Below are positions 32,976-64,000 of a stretch of 64,000 nt of DNA, piece after piece. Source of the stretch: Blasia pusilla. Its lineage: Eukaryota. Within the stretch, counting starts at the first letter, position 1. Every line of letters starts with the position of its first letter. The notes beneath the pieces are model-generated. The model saw only the letters and a program-made list of their open reading frames with translations. It had not been told where the DNA came from and did no database searches. A program made the position numbers and the translations under genes. The DNA is taken from assembly GCA_050084515.1 (NCBI GenBank), contig CM114271.1:13702001-13766000 (forward strand), in the 5' to 3' direction.

Positions 32976-33695
<720 letters not shown>

Positions 33696-37369: not shown

Positions 37370-37500
37370 AAAATGAGGAAACATGCTCTCTCATGTTACT
37401 TGTGGCCTCAACAGGTCATCCTTGACCTCTTGAGGCTATCCTCCACTACCCGCAAAGGCTCTCTACTAGATCTCGCCGATCGATCCTAAAAGACGTGACA
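37370..37500 (-). mobile_element. Degenerate extra B-terminus of the element-1 family
   Basis: Aligns with 38140-38267 and ends ...CCTAAAAGACGTGACA. Confidence 0.75.
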
Positions 37501-38582
37501 CTCCAAATTGTAACCTACGTGCAGAGGTTATCGGATAATCGTTATCTTCATCAACAAGTCATATGACTGACAAACACCAAAACAAGGAAATTAGCAAAAA
37601 CAATATTCTTGATGCAATGGACCTTGTCATGCGCATACACATCGCTACACAACATACATCGCTGTCACCGAACACACACACAAACACGCACGATCCCATG
37701 CTAACTCATGGCATCCAAACAACGAGACAAGAAGTACCAAATATCTCCAATTAAAATAAGATCCAATCTCTCTCTACACAATCTCACACCATAGCTCTCA
37801 AAGGTGTGCACTCTCTCTCATATCAAACCAAACCCACTCTCCAAATGAGAGGCTTGGGTTACACTCACAAGGCAAGGGACCATAGCTCCGCCGCCTCATG
37901 CCAAGAGGTTCAACAAAGAAAGAATGAGCTCTCAAGCTCTCTCTCCTTGAGATATATACCCCTCCCCTCTCCCAAGCTCTCTCCATGGTAACCTATTCTC
38001 CCAAGTCACCTCCTTGGCTCTTGACCTGATGTAGGAGGTCAAGGGCCACTTACCAAAAATAGAAAGTCGATCATATACTCAAAATGGTACTTACCTAAAA
38101 TAGTAAGTTCCTCAATATGGCTCCAAATGAGCCAAAACGAAGGGGAAACCTGCTCTCTCAGGTTTCTCGGGGCTTCAGCAGGTCATCCTTGACCTCCTAG
38201 GCCTGTCCTCCACTACTCTTGAAGACGTTGTACTAGATCTCACCGATCTATCCTAAAGGACGTGACAGTTGTCGTGCGCATATACATCGTTACACAACAT
38301 ACATCGTTGTCACCGAACACACACACAAACACGCACGATCCCATGCTAACTCATGGCATCCAAACAACGAGACAAGAAGTACCAAATATCTCCAATCGCC
38401 CCCCTAGCTGGTGGTTAGGTCCCTCTAACTCCAGATAGCCATCTATCCCTACCTACCATGACATACATCTCTCGGACGCTAAGAGCAAGAAGGTTGGGTG
38501 CTCATGTGGCCCCATCGTTAGTCGCCTTCCTATCATCCATGTCAGAGAAAAATTTGGGATCGAGACCTACCTAGTATCTCCT

Positions 38583-41999: not shown

Positions 42000-42935
42000 C
42001 CATGTCAGCAGTTCAGGTCCATCGCGACCCAAGACATGGCGTCGTGATGCCTCTAACACTAACGGTACTGCCGTCACACCTGTGGGAAATCCCATCGCTC
42101 GCTCTCTCTCATCGGCGTTGGGCTCCACCAACTGCTGAACCTGGTCATCCCAAACCAAGCCAGGACCGGCCTCCTTGTATGCATAGGAAGCGGGAAAACT
42201 CACAAACGTGGGCAAGGCTGCCCGCAACATGCCTACCCTATTGACCACAGTGAACGGTGGTCGATCAACGTGCCTCACTGCCTGTGATTGACGACTTGGA
42301 TCTAGAATGGAATCCACTACCAAATGAGAGGGGCGCTCCACTCTCGCATACGCCCTCCGTAACACCGCATGGGGCACCAAGTTGGTCCATCATAGACGCG
42401 GGCGATGGGCTCTAGAATCTACACTCGCCGCATCCAAGAACACTGCTGGGCCGATCCAGGCACGCAGCTAATGAGCACTCGTCACCACCCGTGACCTGGA
42501 GTCTCCTAAGATCGGCACATTCTCCAGAATGTAGGCTGGAGAACGAGACTGGTGCTCCTCCAACTGCCGTAAGACCCTCAACATCTCCCAAAACAACCTG
42601 GACCGAGTGTCAGCCAACCCGCTGCCTCGTTCAGCACTCATTGGCCCTAACATGGCCAACCGGAAATGACCAAATTAATGGTCCCTACCCGCTCTAAGTC
42701 CTGCGTCCCCAATAACAAAATATTCCTCAGTAGGGAACTTTGGTACCCATGTACTACGGACGCAGACAATAAGTCGGGAAAACATAGGCGTAACTGCGCC
42801 ACATATCGTAGTGAGACGCGCCTTGCAACATCATCACTCTCCACATACATGTACTGTTGTACTCGCACTCCTGCCTGCAAAACAGCAGCTACCCAGATGC
42901 TAATCCCTCCAAAGAGATCTAACACTCGGATACCC
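42000..42935 (-). pseudogene. Element 1 C5 cytosine DNA methyltransferase domain (DNMT3-like motif order)
   Basis: Motif I IRVLDLFGGIS; IV NLVISGWPC*; LADTRSRLFWEMLRVL; VI YILENVP; VIII LDAA..SRAHRPRL; IX ERERAMGFP; X RRHVLG. Confidence 0.92.
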
Positions 42936-43274
42936 TCCCCCGGGATACACCACACAATGGGTGTGGTATCCAAGGGTGTCATCGTAGCACTCCTTGCTAC
43001 CTTGGGTTCCTCAGACCCGTCACGCTCCGGTGCAAACGCTTCACTCCACGCCGTCTGCACGTGCTCATCTGCCAATCGTCGAAGCTCCTCAGTCGAGCCC
43101 CACAACAGCACCTCTCCTCCACGGAATGATATAGCTACCATAACACTCCTCTCCATAGAAATGTCAGGAACGGGAGTATCCTCTGCATGGACATGTCCCT
43201 CAATCAAATCACTAGGCCAAGTGATGGCACTGCTAAATGCTGCTAAGGTCGCCATCTCTCCTGGCCGTTGTTCG

Positions 43275-45878: not shown

Positions 45879-48004
45879 GCCTTTCTCACCCGATCACTCT
45901 TGCCTCGCGAGTTATCCCTCAATCACTCATCCCAAACATGCGGCACTCGATCTACACACTCCCTCTCGAGACATGTAACGTGCGGCAATAAGCGGCGTGG
46001 TGCGGCAAATCGACCAGGCTATCATCTCATTGACAACCTACCCTCAACTCCGGACATCCCACATAGGTCTATGTCCCCTAAGTCACATACATAAATGATA
46101 CTCTCAGCATCCACACACCCAATATCCCCAAATAAACTACCCAAATCCCAGAATCCCTCACACGTATAGGGTAAAGGACCAGGATGGGTAACCTGAACAC
46201 ATGTCGATGTCGCTCCTCAGCAGCTGCGAATCTCGACCCCAACTCGGTCGTGGAGACAACTCCTCCAATCAGCAAGTCATACTCCTCCCGTACTGACGTT
46301 GCTCAATAATCCTCGATAGACGGTGCGGTTCTAGCGGAACGGTGCGGCGTTGCAAGCGGCACGGAACGGCTACAAACGGCACGACCCTCGATGATGGGAT
46401 GCGGCACTCGGCGGCATACCCTCCTCAATCAAAAATAAACCCACACTTTGCTCCACAATGTCGGAGCGGCTCTGCAATCAAGACGGTGCGGTGTGCGGCC
46501 ACGAGCGGCACGGCGCGGCAATCAGCGGCGCGTTGCGGCTACGGGCGTCACGGCACGGTACCCGATCGTCGTTGAGCGGCTACCAATCACAACATAGCAG
46601 GAGGAAATCAAAACTCAAACACTATAACATGAGGTCATATGCCATCACACGTTGATGATGGTGGCGGCCAAAGCAAAGTACGTGATGGCGACGCAAGTCC
46701 GAGAATCAACGAACGTTGTGGAAGACCCTCCACTCCGTAACGGCGGCAATGGCAACCAAGGGTGGACAAGGGACGGTGGACCATTGAAGATGACGGTTGA
46801 CCATTGATGGTGATGGTTGACCATTGATGATGAAAGTTGACCGTTGACGGTTGACAGTGACCATGACGGCGACGGCCGCCGCCGGTGTGGTGGCTGATTT
46901 AGGGTTTGCACAATTTAACCCTAAAAATCGCCTAGCAATGGCAATTTTTGCAAGATTGACCATACCTTTTTGCTCCCAACTCCAAATTGCACATTTTTTG
47001 TTGCACAGCGTCCACAGCTTGACGATCTACGCCAGTATCAAAAAAATATTTGGAATTGAACATTCCAATAAAAACTGACAAGGACTGTCGTAAAGCCCAA
47101 TGTCTCTTTCTTCTACCCAACATTCCTCCCAACAAAAATGTAAAACTTGTAAAAATGCAAATCAGCAAGCAACATGGTGCTCCCAAAAGCATCGGCATGG
47201 GGTAACCCGCCCCCATACTCAATCCCTATCAGAAATTGGGCAGCGCTTCCGCACGCCACTCTTCCACACGAAAAATCGGCAAATGCAAGGAACAATCCAA
47301 GCAACCCTTGCTCCGATGAGCACTCCCATGAGCCGTTGAACGGGGAACACGGTCCCCAAGCTGCAAAAACAGCGAGTGACCAGCGAGCTCCCCCATGAAG
47401 CTCTCTCACTCTCTCATTCTCTAATTTTGCATTCTCTCTTTCTCTCATTCTCTCTTTGTAAAGTAAGATCCAATCTCTCTCTACACAATCTCACACCATA
47501 GCTCTCAAAGGTGTGCACTCTCTCTCATATCAAACCAAACCCACTCTCCTAATGAGAAGCTTGGGTTACACTCACAAGGCAAGGGAACATAGTTCCGCCG
47601 CCTCATGCCAAGAAGTTCAACAAAGAAAGAATGAGCTCTCAAGCTCTCTCTCCTTGGGATATATACCCCTCCCCTCTCCCAAGCTCTCTCCATGGTAACC
47701 TATTCTCCCAAGTCACCTCCTTGGTTTTTGACCTGATGTAGGAGGTCAAGGGCCAGTTACCAAAAATAGAAAGTCGATCACATACTCAAAATAGTACTTA
47801 TCTAAAATAGTAAGTTCCTCAATATAGCTCCAAATGAGCCAAAACGAAGGCCTCAACAAGTCATCCTTGACCTCCTTGTCTTCCACTACTCTTGAAGACG
47901 CTCTACTAGATCTCACCGATCTATCCTAAAGGACGTGACAACCTATTTCCAACCTTATCCGACATCTCAAGACGAAGTTAAGCCGATACAAATTTTTTAC
48001 CCTC

Positions 48005-48245: not shown

Positions 48246-48479
48246 ATCTATCCAATATAATCCACTATTCTATACATATATAGCACCCTCGGTGTCGTCA
48301 TACCCGCCATATCTCCCAGCACATACTCATTTGTGAGTCCATCTCCTCTATCTCTACCTAGAGATATCAATGTATCCGGATCTCATCCTACATTGCAACT
48401 CTACAGCTACCCACCATATTGATCCCTCTAAAGAGATCTAACACTTTTGCACCCTCCTCCAGATACTACCATACAATAG

Positions 48480-49230
48480 ATGTGATATCCGAAGATGTCA
48501 AGTCTCCACTCCAAGAGCATGATGTTGCTCGATATGGGAGTGTAGGGAGAATCCGTGTAGATAGAGGTGAGTTGAATGTGGAGGAAGCACGAGAGTTCTT
48601 CAATAAGTATGGACTCCAGTTGAGATTAACAACCTCTATGAATCCGGAGGCAAAGGGCAAGAGCGCAAGGGGACATCCGCCAATCATTCAAGCATTGGTA
48701 AAGGTGTGTGGAGACCATTATGCTCATTGGCCTAGATTGCTTCCATTTGCTTCATGGGCATATACGATCACTCACAACAGCGTTACAAGGTTCATGCCTA
48801 CATAGTTGATGCCAGGTCAAAAGCCAATAATGCCAGCAGAAGGAGATATTCCCACTTGGATGGATTTACCGTGGGAGGACGGGCTCGATAGGGAAGAGCT
48901 CATAGCACTTTGAATGTAGCATCTAGAGCGGCGTGAAGTAGATATCGCAGAAGTATTAGTCAAAAGGAAGGAAGCAAGGTTGAAAAATAAGGAACGCTTC
49001 GACAAAAGTCATCGACTTGAGAAGGAGCCTATAAGAGAAGGAGATTGGGTCTTGGTGCACGACAACAACCTCGACAACCAGCATAGTACTATTAAAAAAT
49101 GTGCACGTCATTGGTTTGGTCCATATATTATAGCCTTTTTTTTTTACAATGCCACTTAGAAATTACAAGAGCTAGATATCACAATTCTCAAGTTGCCCAT
49201 TGTAGAAAAAAGGGTGAATATTTTCCGTAG
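48480..49230 (+). mobile_element. Integrase fragment of a different Gypsy lineage, followed by a PPT-like tract and probable 3' LTR start at 49362
   Basis: RYG..GRIRVDRGEL...TTSMNPEAKGKSARGH...WPRLLPFA.WA...GQKPIMP...GDWVLV...WFGPY (GPY/F); GGAGGAGGTGAA|TGTCGT at 49350-49367. Confidence 0.85.
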
Positions 49231-50704
49231 ATGTGAGGGATTTTTGATTTTGACGAATCAGATCAATCTTTCTAGAGATACAGTAAAAATAAGTCTGAAT
49301 AAGATAGCAAGAAGTCTTGACCTGCATATACCGGAGGATGTGCAGATTTGGAGGAGGTGAATGTCGTATAGTAAAATCACCTACCATATAAACTCCTCTC
49401 TCATTAAGTGTTAGAGAGAGTTTTATTAGTATGAAGTAAATTAGCTTAGGAAAAGAAAATTTTCATATTTAAACCTCTTTATGGTGTCTCTTTTATGCGG
49501 GCCCAATTTTAGGAAAAGAGGTAATAAATTAGACATGAGATTATAAAAATAAAGTAGGGGATTGGTGAATTAATGAAAGAAAAGCAAAAGTACTCTTGGT
49601 TTGTGGCTAGGGTAGTTGGGGTAATTTGGAAGATATGAGGTGAGTACAGGATTTGTCATGACCATATGGATTATGTCGTAAAGTATAGTGTGCTAGTAGA
49701 GGCCATTCCTTATGTAGGACCGTAGTGGCTTGGTAGAGATGCGGTTTCATACATAGGGTTGGAGGTTACTCAGTTGGGGGTGACTTTCCCAGTAGGTTGG
49801 AGGATATAAGGTGGAGTGCACTCAAAGAACAATCAATTCTTTGAGTTGAGCCTGTTGCGTTAGGAGTTAGCCTTGGTAGTGAGTAGAGCTCTTGGCTATG
49901 GTGTTTCCCGCAAGCTTCGACATAGATTCTCCCATCGTGGAGTGGGTTTGGCTCGATTGTATGTGATTGTATACGTGTTTTATGACAGTAGGTCTTTCAG
50001 GGATTTCACTCAAAGAACTGGAGTAGATCGATGGTAGCTTCGATTGTAGATCAGTAGGATCTGGTTAGGGCTGATTGTGTACTCAGCCGTGGATGTTCGT
50101 GGCTTGTGGGCTATTCTGCCTGGAGGACGCTTAACTGCTGAGTTCTTAACTATGCAAGTGTACACACTGTTGTAGCTCATTTGGTGCTGTTCGGAGAGTT
50201 GTTAGGCGCTTTATGCATCTAAGGTTTTTGGTTGATGTACCTCTAGCGCATAGTACGGTGTAGCCTCTCCATGCAGGTGATATTTTCAGGTGCTGCGAGT
50301 TCGACTAGCACGTCATCGACCCGCGGCGGAGTAGCTATTGCGTTAGAATTGTGTGGTGGGTTTTGTGGAGTCAGGGGGCACCACGTTTGGTGGATTGTGT
50401 TACCTTGATTTCCATTTGCGATTGGAGGGTTGTCGTTGGACTTCCTGTGTTTGGATCCCCTCCATCGGTGCTTCTTGCTTGCGCGCCCATTGTTAGGGTT
50501 GACGCTGATTTCTAGAGTAGTGTTACTCCTGTGTGCTACCGATAGTGAGGCTGGAGTGATGACCAGTAGACCGTGGGAGGCTTCTTGTGGTGATGACATG
50601 TTAGGTTGCCTACATCCATAGCTAGTAGAGCTAGAATAGTATAGCGACATCGACGTCACTTGGTTATTTGGTGGTGGTAATTTGGTGGTGGTGCGGCATC
50701 GGCG

Positions 50705-53528: not shown

Positions 53529-54460
53529 ATTTGTGTGTTAGATCTCTTTGGTGGGATTAGCACTGGTTTGGTCTTAGATGTTGCAGGCCCGTATTCTGTG
53601 GGGAGATACGTGTATGTGGGAGCGAGATGAGACGGCCCGAGAGTCTCATCCCGACATATTGGTCAGTTGATGCGGAGATATCCTGAGTTGTTGCCGCCAT
53701 CAGCTATTCGTGGGTACCAGCGTGCTTTACCATCACACATTGCATTGTTGGGGGCGCAGGACCTTGAGAGGGTTGGTCCTGTGGATTTGGTGATTGCTGG
53801 ATGGCCATGTCAGGGTCATACACGTGCTGGTTGTGGTGAGGGATTACATGACCCTAGGTCTTGTTTGTTTTGGGAGATGTTACGGGTGTTACGACATCTT
53901 CAGGTTCATCAGGCACGTGCTCTAGCTTTCATTGTGGAGAATGTTCCATTGTTGGGTGACACTCGGACCCGGATGAGGGCGAGTGTTCATGAGGTGCGGT
54001 CTTGGATTGGACCAGCGGTGTTGTTGGATGCAGCCCGAGTTGGCTCGCCTGCACATTGTCCACGCTTGTGGTGGACAAACTTGTTGCCCAGGGAGGTTCT
54101 ACGTCGAGCATATGATGCAGTGCAGCGGGATCCTTGCCTTACCGTGGATAGTATCTTGGATACTGGGCGACTTTCTCAGGTGGTGAGGGTTATTGATCGC
54201 TCACCCATGGCAGTGGTGAACCGTGTGGGCCAGCCTAGGATGGTACTACCCACATTTGTGAGTTTTCCCTCGTCACATGCCTACAGAGAAGGTGGTCCGG
54301 GGCTTGTATGGGATTCTCATGTACGACAGTTGGTGGAGCCTAACGCTGATGAGAGAGAGCGTGCGATGGGATTTGCTACTGGTGTGACACCGGTTACTTC
54401 CATTTCTGAGGCTTCACGACGTCATGTGTTGGGTCAGGCCATGGACCTGAATTGTTTAAG
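53529..54460 (+). pseudogene. Element 2 C5 cytosine DNA methyltransferase domain
   Basis: Motif I ICVLDLFGGISTG; IV GPVDLVIAGWPCQG (catalytic PC); GLHDPRSCLFWEMLRVL; VI FIVENVP; VIII LDAARVGSPAHCPRLWWTNL; IX ERERAMGF; X RRHVLGQAM. Frameshifts after motif I. Confidence 0.95.
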
Positions 54461-54728
54461 TTGGATTTTGAGTCTTGGTATGGCCGAGCAGCGTCGACTT
54501 CGGACTTTGTCTGTGGGTCTTCCACCCCTTGTAATGAGCTCGATGGCTACCGGGACGGTAGAGGCATCGGCTGGGGGCGAGGAGAGTAGTATTTTGCATC
54601 CTTGGAGTAAATGGGATGTAATGGCTGGGCATGTGGAGTTGGTTGCTCATGCTGGTGGAGGAGTTATTTGCTCAGATGATGGTGTAGCTAAGGGTGTACC
54701 ATTTCGTGAGGGGGTTGCGTAGCAGCCA

Positions 54729-56507
54729 ATGGCATCGTCCTCTCCCTCTAGTGTGCCAGTGGAGGAGACTTGGGAGCCATTACTTGGGCCCAAGCTTACG
54801 GGAGGTGAGAAACGACGCTTGACACAGTTCCTACGTGCTTATAGGAGTTGTTTTGCCTTTACCATGAAGGAGTTGGGTTCTCTGGTTGGACCGAGTATAC
54901 GGATTGATTTGGCTAGTGATACGCCAATCTTCTGTCGTCCCTACCGATATAGTGATATGGAGAGGGACCTGATTCAGAGTAGGACGTTGGACCTTTTGGA
55001 GGCTGGATTAGTGGAGTTGTCGCATGAAGAGTATGCATTAGCCACTGTCATGCGTGCTAAAAAGGATATGCATGGCAACTACACGAATAGGCGGATGTGT
55101 GGAGATTACCGTCCTATCAATCGGCAAACCAAGGCCGATAGGTATGCCATGCCTATACCTGAGGAGATCTTTGATGTGGTGGGACAGGAAAAGATTTTCA
55201 CTACTTTGGATCTTCGGGCAGGATACCATCAATTGCCGATTCGGGAGAGTGACAAGGCCAAGACAACATTTTGGGGTGTCAACTCTCATGGCAAGGATTG
55301 TTTGTACCAGTGGAAATTCTTATCCTTTGGGTTGAAGAATGCACCTACCGAGTTTCAGAGAGTTATGGACAGGATCCTAGCAGGGTTGGATTTTGTTCGG
55401 TGTTACATTGATGATATCTTGGTGTTTAGTAACACGGTGGAGGAGCATCAGATACATTTGCAGATGGTGTTTGAGCGGTTGAAAGCTCATGGTCTACGTT
55501 TGCATCCAGGAAAGTGTAAGTTCTTCCATGAGGATGTTGAGTACTTGGGTCATGTGATCTATCCAGGTGGTTTAGGAGTTCAGCAAGCAAAGGTGGAGGC
55601 TATTGCACTTATTCCGCGTCCGGTAGATGTGAGTAGAGTTCGGGCATTCATGGGATTGGCGAACTACTATCGGAGGTATGTGAAGGGATTTAGTGCTATG
55701 GCAAAGCCTTTGAACCAATTGCTGAAATCAGATCAAGAGTGGCACTGGGGAGATGATCAGGAGAGAGCTTTTGTGGAGCTTAAGGCCTACTTGGTGGCGG
55801 CGCTAATCTTGAGGAGACCTATTAGAGGGCGCCCATTTTAGTTACACACTGATTAGAGTAGGTTAGGACTTGGAGCCGTGTTGACACAACATGATGATGA
55901 GCACATGGAGTTTGTGGTGGCCTATGCAAGTCGTTCGAATAATGCAGCGGAGTCGCGCTATAGTTCATATGAGGGAGAGTGCTTAGCAGTAGTGTGGGTT
56001 GTGGCACACTTTAGGTGTTACTTGTTTGGCACACAGTTTACCCTTGTTTCTGATCACCAGCCGCTCAAGTGGTTGATGGAGTCTGACAAGGTTACAGGGA
56101 AGCTTGCACGGTGGGCTCTTATCTTACAGGAGTATGACTTCCAAGTGGTACATAGACCTGGAGTTGGCAACCTTGATGCTGATGGGTTGAGTAGGAACCC
56201 ATGTACTAGCCAAGAGGATACAACTGGGGCTAGATGGCATGGCGAGGTTGATGAGGAGATGGTGCCAGGTTGGCATGCATCCGCCTTTTTATGTTGGTTA
56301 GGGGTGGACTCTAGTATGGAGGATCACATGATATCTTACTCTAGTGAGAGAGTAGATGGCCAGCCTTCAGATCCTAAGGTTGGAAATGGTGGTACGGATC
56401 AGCGTGATATTCATTATGATGCGTTGGTGTTGGAGTTCCTACGGACCAGTAGGGTGCCAGGCATAGTGAGTGCCAAGGAGCGAGACCGTGTTCTTCAGCG
56501 TGCTTAG
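54729..56507 (+). pseudogene. Element 2 reverse transcriptase and RNase H
   Basis: RMCGDYRPINRQT, LDLRAGYHQL, FGLKNAP, YIDDILVFS, YLGHVI; RNase H YASRSNN.AE..Y...EGECLA, SDHQPLKWL, ADGLSR. Confidence 0.95.
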
Positions 56508-56540
56508 AGGTATCGATTAGAGGGAACACATACTCTCCAC

Positions 56541-57837
56541 GTGTGGGAGGATGGTAGAGTACGAGTAGTGCCACATTTGGCTCAGAGAGACCGCATTGTG
56601 CGACATGCGCATGAGGAGTTGGGACATTTTTGGGTAAAGCGTAAGTATAGCTTACTCCTTGGCCAGTATTGGTGGCGTGGCATGCATACTCAGGTGCAGC
56701 AATTGGTGTTACATTGTATGGTTTGTGACCAGGTGAGGGCATCATTCAATGCCCCTACACCACAATTACACCCCTTTCCTATTATGGGGTTGGGTTACCG
56801 TTGGAGTGTGGACTTTGCGGGACCGTTACCGTTGACTGTACGACATCATCGATATGTGTTGGTGATGGTGGAGCACTTCTCCAAGTGGATTGAGTTGGTG
56901 GCATTACCGGACAAGGCAAGTGAGGGAACGGCGTATGCGTTTCTTGATAGAGTGCTTAGTCATTTTGGTGCACCGGTGAAGTGTCGACCGACCGAGTCTG
57001 AGTTTCAAGGTGAGTTTCAGGTCTTGTGTGACAAGGCGTTGATTGATCATCGGACCACGTCTCGAGATCATCCAGGCGGATGGTTTGGCTGAGCGTGTGA
57101 TTCAGATGAAGTGAAGAGGGCATTGGGCAAGTATGGCCTCTGAAGGGCATCTTGAGACAGGATATTCAGTTGCCATGGTTAGCCATGGGGTATAGGTTCA
57201 GTCACCAAGCATCCTTGGCTTCCTTCTCACCTTATAATCTGTTATACGGCCGAGATCCAGACTTGCCAGCAGCAATTCGTCGGGAGTCTAGTGAGGTGGT
57301 GAACCTTGATGACCCAGAGATGTGGATGAGAGTGCGTTCTCAGCGGGCAGAGCTCTTTCGGAGAGTTATGCCAACATCCTTTGAGAATCTTGCCATTGCT
57401 CAACACAGGGATACATTGCGGTATGCATTCGGGGTGGAGGTTATCGACCATCGATTCGTAGGTTCCATGTGGGGGACTATGTCTATTTGCAGCAGATTGC
57501 ACCGACAACGTTGGATGTGACGGCAGGCCGTACTATTTTACAAGTGCGAGAGGTGTTAGCTTCTGGAGTTCTCATGTTGGAGGGTCGTGATGGAGTTGTT
57601 TGGAAGGACCATGTGCGTAATTGTGCGTCATGTCATCTTCCAAATGTGGATGGTACTGTTGACCCAAGCTTAGCCATGATCCGTGCTAGCTTGAGGTGCA
57701 TGTTGTGTGGGTCTGCTGGTAACGCTGCTCGTATGTTGGTGTGTGATCGGTGTTCTAGGGGTTGGCACATGATGTGTTTGACTCCACGTATGGATGTTGT
57801 TCCTACAGGAAGGTGGGTTTGTCCTCGATGTACTTAG
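56541..57837 (+). pseudogene. Element 2 DDE integrase with C-terminal PHD finger (57697-57837)
   Basis: AHEELGH...CMVC; WSVDFAGPL; EHFSKWIELV; PHD CMLC..CDRC..HMMC..WVCPRC (C4HC3). Confidence 0.95.
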
Positions 57838-59227
57838 GAGAGGTAGATGACTTGATCTTTGCATGATATGGATTACAGATGTGCGACTAACGATGGGGCA
57901 ACCTAGCACCCGGACTTTTGATTCGAGCACCCAAGAAGGTGTATAGCATGTAGTAGATGTATAGGCCTACCTGGGAGTTAGAGGGACCTAACCGCTTGAT
58001 TAGGGGGCGAGTTGTGGTACACTTGTGTTTGTGGATGCTCTCGTCTATGTTATGTATGTATGTGAGTATGGTATATCAGCGATGTATGTTGTATGACGAT
58101 GTGGATTTGCACGACAGCTGTCATGACCATACGGATTATGTCGTAGATTATAGTGTGCTAGTAGAGGCCATTCCTTATGTAGGACCGTAGTGGCTAGGTA
58201 GAGATGCGGTTTCATTCATAGGGTTGGGGGTTACTCAGTTGGGGGTGACTTTCCCAATAGGCCCGCTCTTAGTTTGGAGGATATAGTGTGGAGACCCAAA
58301 GAACAGTCAGTTCTTTGAGTTGAGCCTCTTGCGTTGGGAGTTAGCCTTTGTAGTGAGTAGAGCTCTTGGCTATGGTGTTTCCCGCAAGCTTCGACCTAGA
58401 TTCTCCCATCGTGGAGTGGGTTTGGCTCGATTGTATGTGATTGTATACGTGTTTTATGACAATAGGTCTTTCACGGATTTTAGTTGTGGTACACTTGTGT
58501 TTGTGGATGCTCTCGTCTATGTTATGTATGTATGTGAGTATGGTATATCAGCGATGTATGTTGTATGACGATGTGGATTCACACGACAGATTATATTTTG
58601 GAAGAAATAAGAGATAATCTACTTATGTCAAAATATTATTGGCTAAGCCTTGAGAGGAAGCCATGTGGCACAAGATAAGATTAGTCATATTTTATATTTT
58701 TGTGGATCCCTTGTGAGTATATAAAGAGGAGGGACCTTCAAGGGTTTATCACCTTCTATTTCATTCTTGAGTTATCGTATCATTCTTGAGTGGATGGCAT
58801 TGGGCTTGCTTGCTCTTCCAATGAGAATGGATTACCCCTCTTGAGAGAATAACTTGACCATGATTTATTCTTTGAGAGGATTTTAGAGTGTGATATGTGT
58901 AGAGTTGAGAGACTTGTTATCTTAGGGAAGTTTAGTCATATTAGAGATAGTGGATGGTTTTGGCTTGTTAGTTTCCCAATGAGAATGGATTACTCCTCTT
59001 GGGAGAGCAACTCCAGCAAAATCCATTCTTAAGGTAAGTAGAGGATGCCCGTCAAGTATGGATAGGGGTGGAGCACGAGTTGTACATGATTTTCCTTTCC
59101 TTAACGCGTAGCACGTGAAGATTCTCCTCGTAGATAGACACTACTTTACTTGTTATCTAGTTTACCACTTTGGAGAGGCATTCATGAACCAGTTCATGCA
59201 GTCTCCAACTCTGGTGATTCTTCCTAT

Positions 59228-59579
59228 TGTCACGTTTGGGAGGACATAGGATTGTAAATTGTATGTTCTTATATAGCAATCCATGGATGTTAATATGCCT
59301 GCTTATATAGGATTTAACACTAGTTGTGTTATTTTTCTTGTCTACAAGCATAAAGTAGTTTACAGGGACTTTATAGTTAGGAGTTTTGGTGTTCGATGTT
59401 ATACAGAGGTGATCTCCTCGGCACTACCATTCGTGATTCTTACCGTGAGAGAATACAGGGTTTATATAATAATTTTGTATTGAAAAAGGGGAACTTCTTA
59501 TAGAGTGCACCTTGCATCAACCCCGTTTTCCGCAGCTAGAAGGTATGCTCTTACTCAAAGAAAATCTCTCGACACGATA
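59228..59579 (+). mobile_element. Isolated LTR (about 352 bp) of the tRNA-primed Gypsy family at the window end, in opposite orientation
   Basis: TGTCACG...GACACGATA; aligns with the reverse complement of 63659-64000. No TSD (CCTAT / ATGTC). Confidence 0.85.
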
Positions 59580-59599
59580 ATGTCTCAAGCACTTGCTGT

Positions 59600-61830: not shown

Positions 61831-64000
61831 CCCTCCACTCTCGCCTCTTCTCCTTGTAAGTCAAGCTTTTGTCCAAAAACTTGGCAAAGCTCTTCATCTT
61901 CTTCTTCTGTGATGTCAGTATCCAATGCCCTCACCATCACCATATCTCCAGTCATTTGCCTTTTCCTTTTGATCACATCTATGATCAACTCATGGAAGTC
62001 ACGTTTGGCTATGCCCAAGACTTCCCTCAAAGAAAACTCTATTTTCGCATCCAAAATCCTATCCTCAAGAATCTCTTTTAAATTCGTTCTTGTCTCTATA
62101 TCAAATTGCAACTTGTATGTAGGAGTCTTACACTTGGTCTTCTGGGAAGACCTCAATTCTTTCTCCTTCATTCCACCTTCTTTCATTTGAGAATCCATCA
62201 TAGATTCAGATGTAGAAGGCCCTTCTTCTCTTGATGGTTGCGCCTCTGGTTGCCCTTTCCTTCTTACGGTCCTCGCTCTTCTTGCAGCTTCCTCGAGATC
62301 AGCACCATCATTGTCGCATCTCCTCTTCTCCTCCACACTAGCATCTTGCCAACTCACATGTTTCTCTTGTGCTAGGTATGCTTTAACACATCCAACTTCC
62401 ACTGGATCATCCCATCCAGTCAGATGACGGATAGTCTCTGCCCCTCGTATCATCACTTCTCGAGGAAATTGTAATGATTCACTTTTAGCTACAGATACAA
62501 TAGGCACTTCTATTTTTTCTGCAAAGGTATCAGAATCTAATGCCGTAGTGGCAACTCCTACTTGACTTCTCACTAAGCCTTTCATTCCTCCTCTACCAAA
62601 GTTGGTATTCAACAACATACCAGTCTGCGTTGAATGAATCTTCCCATCTTTGAAGTTTACTATTCCATTCCTAAGAGCTTCTGAAAACTCCTCACATTCT
62701 CGACGTTGATGCTCAACACTATCACACCATATACATTTTCTCACAAAGTTCCTACTTATTGAAGGAGCACCAACACTAGGATTCCTATCAAGTTAAAGCT
62801 CAGCCATTTCTACTCTCAATTCTCTCAAACCTTTCACCAACTCATCTATAGCAGGATCTTCAAGTTTTGTTGAAACGGGCTTAGGCAATGGATTTGAAAT
62901 TGATACCTCCGACTTGAATAGTGCGGTTCTACCTCTACTTCGATTTTGCTTTGTAAGGATAGCAACAGCTTCTTCCACTTTCTTCCAATTAGTGCTAATA
63001 TCTCCTTCTTCGGTCTTGTCCGCCAACATTATGAAAATTTTGTCCTCCAAATTCTCGTCAGCCGCCTCAAGGAATAACTCAGTTTTCCTCAAGTCTAGAG
63101 TTGCTCTTTCGGAAGAAGAAAGCTGAAAAAACCGCTTCTCAAACTCACGCAATAATTCATTTGGAGTCATTCCCTTCCCTGGACGTTGCTTTGTCCATTT
63201 AAAAAACTCCTCTTAGTCACCCGATCCACATCATCATCGAAGAATTCTCTTTTAAGCAACTGCTCATACTCCTCCCACGAGGTTGAATTTTCTGCTCTCA
63301 ACTTCTTCACTTGACTACGAATCTCTTGTATTAGAGCTAACTCAAAACTTGACGCCATATCATCTTCGGGTACACGATTTACCTCCATCTCACAAACGTA
63401 CTCTCGAACATACTTGGTGATGTTTCTCCCATCAAATCTCCCCAATTTCTTTACAATCGCTTGAAGAGCCCTTGTTGATCTTTGCTCTCCTATGTGAACT
63501 CCTCCTTGTTGGCTCAACAATGTTGTCAAAGTTCATAGAAGATCCTCAGCTCCCTCAGTTCCCATTGATGAAGTACTACCAAAAGTAGTCATCTTGATTA
63601 GACTCCAACTTGCAAACACAATCTACCGTCTCAAAGATCTCTCAGTGGAAGCACCATTTGTCGTGTCGAGAGTCTTTCTTCGAGTAAGGGCATGCCTCCT
63701 AGCTGCGGCAGACGCGGTCGATGCAAGATGAACTCTCTGAGAAGATCTCCTTTTTCAATATAAAATTATTATGTATACTCTCCATTCTCTCACGATAGGT
63801 ATCACAAATGGAAGTGCCGAGTCGATCACTTCTTCGTAACATCGGATCCCAAAATTCCTAACTATAAAATCCCTATAAGCTATTTTACGCTTGTATACGA
63901 GGAAGATAGCACAAGTAGTATTAAACCCTACTTGATCCGGCTTATTAATGTCCATGGATTGCTATATAAGGACATATAAAGTACAATCCCATGTCCTTCC
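61830..64000 (-). mobile_element. 5' part of a conventional Gypsy element: LTR (63659 to beyond 64000), tRNA PBS (63639-63656), gag with CIWC...H....C knuckle
   Basis: LTR ends ...CACGACA, then AA, then TGGTGCTTCCACTGAGAG (3'-CCA tRNA complement, resembles tRNA-Thr). Gag: RFDGRNITKYVREY..EME; CIWCDSVEHQRREC; PTYKL..DIE...LKEILEDRILDAKIEFSLREVLGIAK. Confidence 0.88.

Follow-up and report, generated by a model that had tools for sequence, protein, structure and literature searches.

The analysed window is a stretch of 64,000 nucleotides (nt) from Blasia pusilla (assembly GCA_050084515.1, contig CM114271.1, positions 13,702,001 to 13,766,000 of the forward strand). It contains two long terminal repeat (LTR) retrotransposons, which probably prime their own reverse transcription. 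Element 1 is on the minus strand, from 47940 (TGTCACG..) to 37625 (..TGACA), with AGGT at both flanks, and element 2 is on the plus strand, from 49654 (TGTCATG..) to 58588 (..CGACA), with GATT at both flanks. Judged by their domains, both are degraded Ty3/gypsy-type elements of a streptophyte lineage with a polyprotein that contains a C5 DNA methylase and, at its C-terminus, a PHD finger. The degraded pol of element 2 (53631 to 57837, plus strand) lies in a single frame that is interrupted by stop codons and a frameshift. It has Pfam matches to DNA_methylase (PF00145), RVT_1 (PF00078), RT_RNaseH (PF17917), Integrase_H2C2/rve (PF17921/PF00665), and PHD (PF00628). Its C5 methylase is inside a gypsy pol with reverse transcriptase, RNase H, and rve integrase, which is the composition of the Dnmt-bearing gypsy lineage. 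In element 1, the RNase H, the integrase zinc finger, and the PHD finger are still recognisable, and a repeat search found the two elements 73-76% complementary across the inverted-repeat arms. Pfam found no chromodomain behind the integrase in either element; the PHD finger (PF00628) is there instead.

The closest protein matches are from liverworts (Calypogeia, 80%; Marchantia, 71-83%; some with PF00145), followed by Sphagnum, Closterium, Klebsormidium, and Chara. The nearest matches outside the streptophytes are green-algal chromodomain elements and animal GIN1-like proteins. Many homologues have rve and PHD together, and some additionally have the methylase, a protease, and a CCHC finger. 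PF00145 occurs with rve in relatives that include Marchantia, Closterium, and JGI proteins. The open reading frame with the reverse transcriptase had no match among viral contigs, and no Rfam family was found within the window at gathering thresholds. A metagenome scan for relatives gave 80 loci (labels L0xx). No intact family copy was present among these loci, in which the long open frames all came from ordinary gypsy elements, and all family copies examined were decayed.

Elements 1 and 2 have the same layout, consisting of a 5' repeat B1, an internal region, a short repeat A, a 3' repeat B2, and a terminal short repeat A' (B..A-B-A). This is the DIRS-like order of long repeat, coding region, short repeat, long repeat, and short repeat. 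In element 2 (plus strand), the 5' target-site duplication GATT (49650 to 49653; reading ..caggatt, then TGTCATG) precedes B1 (49654 to 50008), which starts with TGTCATG, ends with ..TTTCA, and is a direct repeat with 58119-58482. B1 is predicted to contain a promoter-like part, the R start, and U5. At the other end, the G-run polypurine-like tract AGGGGGCGA (58002 to 58010) is directly 5' of internal A (58011 to 58118), which ends with ..CACGACA plus two nt. B2 (58119 to 58482) and A' (58483 to 58588, ending with ..CGACA) follow, and then the second GATT (58589-58592). In element 1 (minus strand), the target duplication AGGT (47944-47941) precedes B1 (47459 to 47940), which starts with TGTCACG at 47940. 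Its 3' end (37625 to 38405) contains a G-run tract (38405-38396), internal A (38395-38269), B2 (38267-37752), and A' (37751-37625), and the second AGGT (37624-37621) follows.

Both elements thus have the ends TGTCA..GACA and exact 4-base-pair (bp) target duplications. The A-B-A arrangement was found behind pol in at least 16 independent metagenome loci, and the complete B..A-B-A unit in seven (L010, L022, L023/L027, L030, L034, and L057). Of their 4-bp duplications, those of L022 (ATAA) and L023/L027 (TTTA) are exact, and those of L010 and L030 (3/4 nt each) and of L057 (2/4 nt) are imperfect. The ends together with the 4-bp duplications indicate that the permuted unit is the form inserted by the DDE integrase. 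In all groups, the internal A|B junction reads ..ACA, two nt, TGT.., which might be a circle-junction signature like that of a two-LTR circle.

Shorter forms of the family were also seen. Fourteen aligned rows (12 without two near-duplicate pairs) have a "B..A" form, in which internal A is followed by unrelated sequence and B2 and A' are absent (L009, L012/L015, L018, L028/L047, L032, L033, L044, L046, L059, L075, and L076). The L009 copy has TTTT on both sides. A third family copy in the window, on the minus strand, is likewise of this form (32982-33155). It is internally deleted to the 3' end of pol, its B is interrupted by about 3.7 kb of foreign sequence (33324-33693 and 37404-37500), and it has a long (GA)n expansion just 5' of the motif described below. 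The "B..A" forms could be either primary insertions or products of A by A' deletions.

The likeness between B1 and B2 ends at one sharp point, with A' behind B2 and, behind B1, a stretch that is complementary to part of B itself. In element 2, this predicted primer-binding site, ACTCAAAGAACTG (50008 to 50020, plus strand), abuts the end of B1, and CAGTTCTTTGAGT at 58308-58320 in B2 is its exact complement. The candidate self-primer motif in B1, CAATTCTTTGAGT (49834 to 49846, plus strand), has one mismatch to the post-B site, and the duplex with the B2 version is 14 bp long, one G:U included. The motif forms the 3' arm of a small palindrome (49820-49846), and the 5' arm of this palindrome repeats the post-B sequence. 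In element 1, the predicted primer-binding site CAAAGAGAGAATGAG (47458 to 47444, minus strand) also abuts the end of B1. Its candidate self-primer motif CTCATTCTTTCTTTG is found at 47635 to 47621 (minus strand) and again in B2 (37928-37914), and the duplex, with one G:U, can be read as 16 bp. The third copy has the motif CTCATTCTCTCTTTG (33416 to 33402, minus strand), a perfect complement of the element 1 post-B site.

All motifs quoted for elements 1 and 2 in a preliminary description of this DNA were recovered at exactly these positions. That description had also stated that neither element has a TGG-initiated tRNA primer-binding site. This is correct for the first 10 nt behind B, where no TGG was found in elements 1 and 2, L011, L013, or 17 5'-context copies of the L010 group, but element 2 does have a TGG 11 nt past B, not adjacent to it. 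A downstream TGG is absent in L013 and lies 19-21 nt past the B end in L002 and L011. In contrast, two ordinary gypsy loci with plain LTRs from the same scan have a TGG-type primer site near the LTR end, directly at it in L073 and 3 nt after it in L040.

When an LTR is formed, the plus-strand primer sets its 5' edge and the minus-strand primer sets its 3' edge. The G-run tract is directly 5' of internal A in elements 1 and 2 and in 34/34 relatives' internal A copies with an aligned start, and A' starts at the same nucleotide as internal A, directly behind B2 (17 aligned rows). Since the G-run abuts A and the complementary stretch abuts the end of B1, the replicative LTR is A+B. Moreover, since the minus-strand primer defines the 3' edge of the LTR, it must bind the nucleotides directly behind B1, which is where the complementary stretch begins.

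Site and motif are complementary in three groups that diverge in sequence, namely the element-1 type, the element-2 type (which includes L011 and L013), and a large L010 type (17 5'-context and 19 3'-context copies). The geometry is constant among them, with the motif 29-31 nt past a TATA box and its partner starting at the last 0-3 nt of B. The arm sequences are unrelated between groups, and the duplexes are 12-16 bp. In L011, ACTCAAAGAATTATGT pairs with ACATAGTTCTTTGAGT over 16 bp with one G:U; by an alternative pair count, the duplex is 19 bp with the B2 copy and 15 bp with B1. In the L010 group, AATTCTAGAAAAACTA pairs with TAGTTTTTCTAGAATT over up to 16 bp, or, in aligned form, TAGTTTTTCTAGAAT(T) with (A)ATTCTAGAAAAACTA. 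Sites homologous to that of element 2 are present in L002, L011, and L013, but the motif is deleted in the 5' copy of L002. Pairs were counted by script, because MAFFT gapped just one arm by 4 columns in the cross-group alignment and the groups therefore differ in their paired columns.

L013 has ATTCGAAGAACT paired with AGTTCTTCGAAT, compared with ACTCAAAGAAC paired with GTTCTTTGAGT in its group. Two pairs are therefore altered on both sides, and the changes are in both repeat copies and in the post-B site. Of the two L013 copies, only B2 retains the full 12-bp motif; B1 has decayed further (8 bp). The upstream palindrome arm of B1 did not follow the pair changes, suggesting that the pairing that was kept is that of the motif with the site and not that of the motif with the neighbouring palindrome arm.

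The pairing depends on context. An uninterrupted duplex score of at least 10 was found in 9/17 5' copies of the L010 group (median 12.5) and in 0/19 3' copies (median 5.5); these counts include the near-duplicate pairs L023/L027 and L042/L043. In these nine 5' copies, the partner is always 112-117 nt from the B end. The motif columns of this group are more conserved than the preceding spacer (0.91 vs 0.82), and so are the first 13 columns behind B compared with the next 13 (0.85 vs 0.70). For each of nine elements, we compared the score with 108 other 22-nt leader windows and with 500 dinucleotide shuffles of B. No window and no shuffle (0/108 and 0/500) reached the scores of element 1 (15.5), L010 (15), L011 (16.5), and L026 (14). 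The score of 12 in L023 was reached by 0/108 windows and 1/500 shuffles, the same score in L037 by 1/108 and 4/500, and the score of 11.5 in L046 by 0/108 and 7/500. The B1 copies of element 2 (score 10; 4/108 and 9/500) and L013 (score 8; 18/108 and 32/500) were reached more often.

The TATA-like TATAAG of element 2 (49805 to 49810, plus strand) starts 29 nt before the motif, and the TATATAT of element 1 starts at 47665 (minus strand), 30 nt before it. In the L010 group, TATA start and motif start lie 31 nt apart in 32/33 copies. From the TATA spacing alone, the RNA is predicted to start at the motif, about 30 nt past the TATA box. When RNA from the motif to just past the site was folded, the 5' end paired with the site in 6/7 folds, with a probability of 0.8-1.0 for most positions; the seventh fold, that of the decayed L013 B1 copy, did not have this pairing. 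In the element 1 fold, the first 13 nt of the motif pair with the site at 0.84-1.00. In the element 2 fold, nine of the first 13 nt pair with it at 0.81-0.91 and three at 0.57-0.78, and the mismatched position is close to 0.

Three raw-read, strand-specific RNA runs with the same species label were mapped at 85% likeness. The reads are sense-oriented over the repeats and leaders of both elements. For element 1, the depth is 90-325 over B and 20-65 over the leader; for element 2, it is 75-160 over most of B and 5-36 over the leader. The junction of B1 end, site, and leader of the element-1 type was crossed by 16-22 reads per run (joint 47409/47441). Many reads enter B from A, indicating that most repeat reads are from the 3' context.

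Self-primed reverse transcription is established for Tf1 of Schizosaccharomyces pombe. Elements 1 and 2 probably also prime from the 5' end of their own RNA instead of a host tRNA. The 12-16 nt directly behind B1 would be the minus-strand primer-binding site, and the primer would be the 5' end of the element's own RNA, which would start at the complementary motif inside B. By analogy with Tf1, this 5' end would fold back onto the site and RNase H would cut behind the duplex. From the 3' end thus freed, the reverse transcriptase would then copy the final 115-165 nt of B. Plus-strand synthesis would later copy the primer, so that the site would be regenerated and the two arms would stay matched. 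In this scheme, we infer the RNA start site, the RNase H cut, and the priming itself.

The preliminary description had arrived at self-priming from the window, and the complementarity at the B boundary, its recurrence in relatives, and its absence behind 3' copies all support this as the probable mode. Its view that the geometry is the same despite differing sequences extends to three divergent groups, with the motif 29-31 nt past the TATA box. The covariation of the two arms that it had proposed, checked here across the family, is seen in the different sequences of the groups and in the two both-sided pair changes of L013. It had further taken the end of B as the U5 end of a permuted layout, and this agrees with the G-run abutting internal A in all 34 relatives' copies and with the TGTCA..GACA ends and 4-bp duplications.

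Several observations weigh against self-priming. There was no read-start pile-up at about 47635 or 49834 in the three RNA runs, and the upstream part of B is as deeply covered as the downstream part, because the reads are mostly from the 3' context (A-B). Clear compensatory events were few, and the duplex is broken by point changes and junction indels in 8/17 5' copies of the L010 group. Since all copies are decayed, most of the arm variation is decay and not compensation. The mutated B1 of element 2, taken alone, is weak and not clearly above chance, and the score of the L013 B1 copy is within reach of the controls. Furthermore, the motif of the element-2 group lies in a palindrome, so identity and complementarity to the post-B site are not fully separable there. 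Host tRNA genes were sought in the window and the 80 loci, where ARAGORN found none.

The best surviving alternative is a structural role for the two arms: they would pair as an RNA stem, a panhandle of 5' end and U5-leader used for packaging, dimerisation, or translation control, and priming would be by another RNA that binds at this site or at one overlapping it. In retroviruses, the primer-binding site is surrounded by U5-leader stems, and in the folds here the terminal helix is part of longer stems, of about 22 bp in element 1. Transcription start at the motif is a prediction, which also speaks for this reading. However, the duplex begins exactly at the B boundary in three groups, where the primer must sit, and no second conserved candidate site adjoins B. 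The conserved TGGAGTAG downstream in the element-2 group varies in its distance (11-21 nt), and L013 lacks it. We therefore consider a purely structural stem unlikely.

It is less likely still that the site binds part of a host tRNA (an internal stretch or one half), as in some copia lineages, and that the match to the repeat is secondary. Half-tRNA priming has been reported for about 2% of plant elements (PMC6317226, main text). A shared host primer would keep the site constant, but the three related groups have three different sites, each matching its own repeat, and the L013 site changed together with its repeat motif. The least probable explanation, already disfavoured, is chance or a DNA-level by-product of sequence close to the edge of the repeat (short palindromes, or GA/CT runs of low complexity): the element 1 leader is GA-rich with tandem repeats, the element 2 motif is palindromic, and the element 2 B1 score alone is within reach of the controls, but the geometry recurs in independent groups at a fixed spacing to the TATA box, the pairing distinguishes 5' from 3' copies, and for four of the nine elements no control reached the score.

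Some further observations concern the repeats and their surroundings. The B repeats are very abundant in the host genome, with a summed contig depth of at least 1e5 in a low-coverage DNA run (47442-47897 and 49608-50063). Element 1 has a 31-nt tandem duplication just behind the predicted primer site (47410-47440, minus strand). The expressed copies are without this duplication, as RNA joints skip the 31 nt, and DNA contigs show many length variants there. In B of element 2, RNA reads jump from 49958 to 49683 (4, 9, and 5 reads in the three runs), a joint that is in no DNA contig and could reflect either a template switch in the library or a copy with a rearrangement. Between the elements, 48468-49607 (plus strand) has strong RNA coverage (depth 20-257). 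These reads all differ from the window at fixed positions, and thus they come from an expressed paralogous copy elsewhere in the genome. There is also an open reading frame at 48362-48805, and 79 nt at 48422-48500 have 75% likeness to a part of element 1 (42903-42981). Downstream of element 2 there is an inverted repeat of 343 nt (59238-59580 and 63658-64000; 81% complementary), which is probably part of another mobile element.

The duplex of Tf1 is 11 nt, compared with a duplex potential of 12-16 nt in the present elements. As in Tf1, the predicted primer-binding site is directly behind the 5' LTR and is complementary to the predicted first nt of the RNA of the element itself, a tRNA-type site beside the LTR is missing, the RNA is predicted to fold back, and the pol is of the Ty3/gypsy type with an integrase. 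Unlike in Tf1, there is a DNA methylase in the pol, and a permuted set of repeats (B..A-B-A) takes the place of two plain LTRs. The integrase of Tf1/sushi elements ends in a chromodomain, whereas that of the present elements ends in a PHD finger. The term "Tf1-like" is thus used for the mode of working only and not for membership of the Tf1/sushi group.

Self-priming has also been predicted in plants. The main text of Neumann et al. 2019 (PMC6317226), which cites Tf1 self-priming as established, predicts it for 12% of the plant elements surveyed, namely in the Tcn1 gypsy clade of mosses and club-mosses and in the TAR copia lineage, and states that no other plant chromovirus group self-primes. 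The word "PHD" does not occur in that main text (primer-site types may be listed in its supplements). In the part of Novikova et al. 2010 (PMC2864245) consulted, SM-Tcn1 is described with neither a tRNA site nor a self-priming site. Like Tcn1 and TAR, the present elements are plant LTR retrotransposons in which self-priming is predicted from sequence in the same way, but they have another domain set and another repeat layout. The mechanism is therefore not new in plants, since predicted self-priming was already reported in that main text for Tcn1 and TAR (PMC6317226). What is new is its prediction in the methylase/PHD gypsy lineage, along with the position that the primer site, the polypurine tract, the integration ends, and the target duplications each take in the permuted layout.

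In the DIRS order, Ngaro and PAT have split direct repeats. The terminal geometry of the present elements (long repeat, internal region, short, long, short) is like that of such split-repeat elements, a layout also drawn for SymbioDIRS in the main text of de Mendoza et al. 2018 (PMC5890265). However, the present elements have a DDE integrase (rve), 4-bp target duplications, and a gypsy-type reverse transcriptase. The features of the DIRS order, a tyrosine recombinase and integration without target duplication, are not those found here; in the open reading frames scanned, there was no Phage_integrase match and the rve integrase was found. They are not DIRS elements. The same main text (PMC5890265) describes KnitGypsy-Dnmt3 of Klebsormidium nitens, a gypsy pol with an embedded Dnmt-type methylase, and gives it the same repeat layout as a DIRS retrotransposon (A-coding-B-A-B). 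The present elements share with it the methylase in a gypsy pol and the DIRS-like layout, and K. nitens proteins are among their homologues. They differ in their host, which is closest to liverworts (80% to a Calypogeia protein). The terms "PBS", "primer binding", and "priming" do not occur in the main text of that paper, its supplements being a separate part, and, relative to that text, target duplications, terminal inverted repeats, a polypurine tract, and a self-complementary site are described only here. De Mendoza et al. 2018 was all that literature searches on split direct repeats with an integrase, on TOC1/DIRS, and on Gypsy/PHD/Marchantia brought up.

The replicative and the inserted units are in conflict: the primer site and polypurine tract define one LTR (A+B), and the integrase ends define another unit. 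Standard reverse transcription of an RNA running from B1 into B2 should give a linear [A B]..[A B] cDNA, whereas the inserted form is B..A-B-A. A symmetric two-LTR circle opening at either A|B site would also yield B-A-B..A. However, A precedes 0/16 of the 5'-context B copies with an aligned start (15 copies without one duplicate), so a directional step is missing from the symmetric circle model, and opening of this symmetric kind is disfavoured. Junction indels were considered as a sign of end-joining, but the difference between B2|A' junctions (about 6/16) and B1|site junctions (about 3/16; both counted by eye) is too small. A tentative explanation, which we hold to be possible but doubtful, is that this lineage separates two jobs of the LTR, with reverse transcription using A+B and the DDE integrase joining at the internal A|B junction.

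If self-priming is as predicted, the methylase- and PHD-bearing gypsy elements of bryophytes, with protein relatives in charophytes, would be a third plant lineage with sequence-predicted self-priming. The present analysis also provides a replication map for permuted elements, on which the predicted primer site, polypurine tract, U5 end, integration ends, and target duplication are placed, and it makes testable how an integrase-bearing element yields a DIRS-like split-repeat copy. If the two LTR jobs are indeed separated, the integrated copies would be circular permutations (B..A-B-A with 4-bp duplications), and integration would be from end-joined or circular cDNA or would follow very deep end processing. 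Replication in this lineage would then parallel that of DIRS/Ngaro elements, but driven by an integrase and beginning with self-priming.

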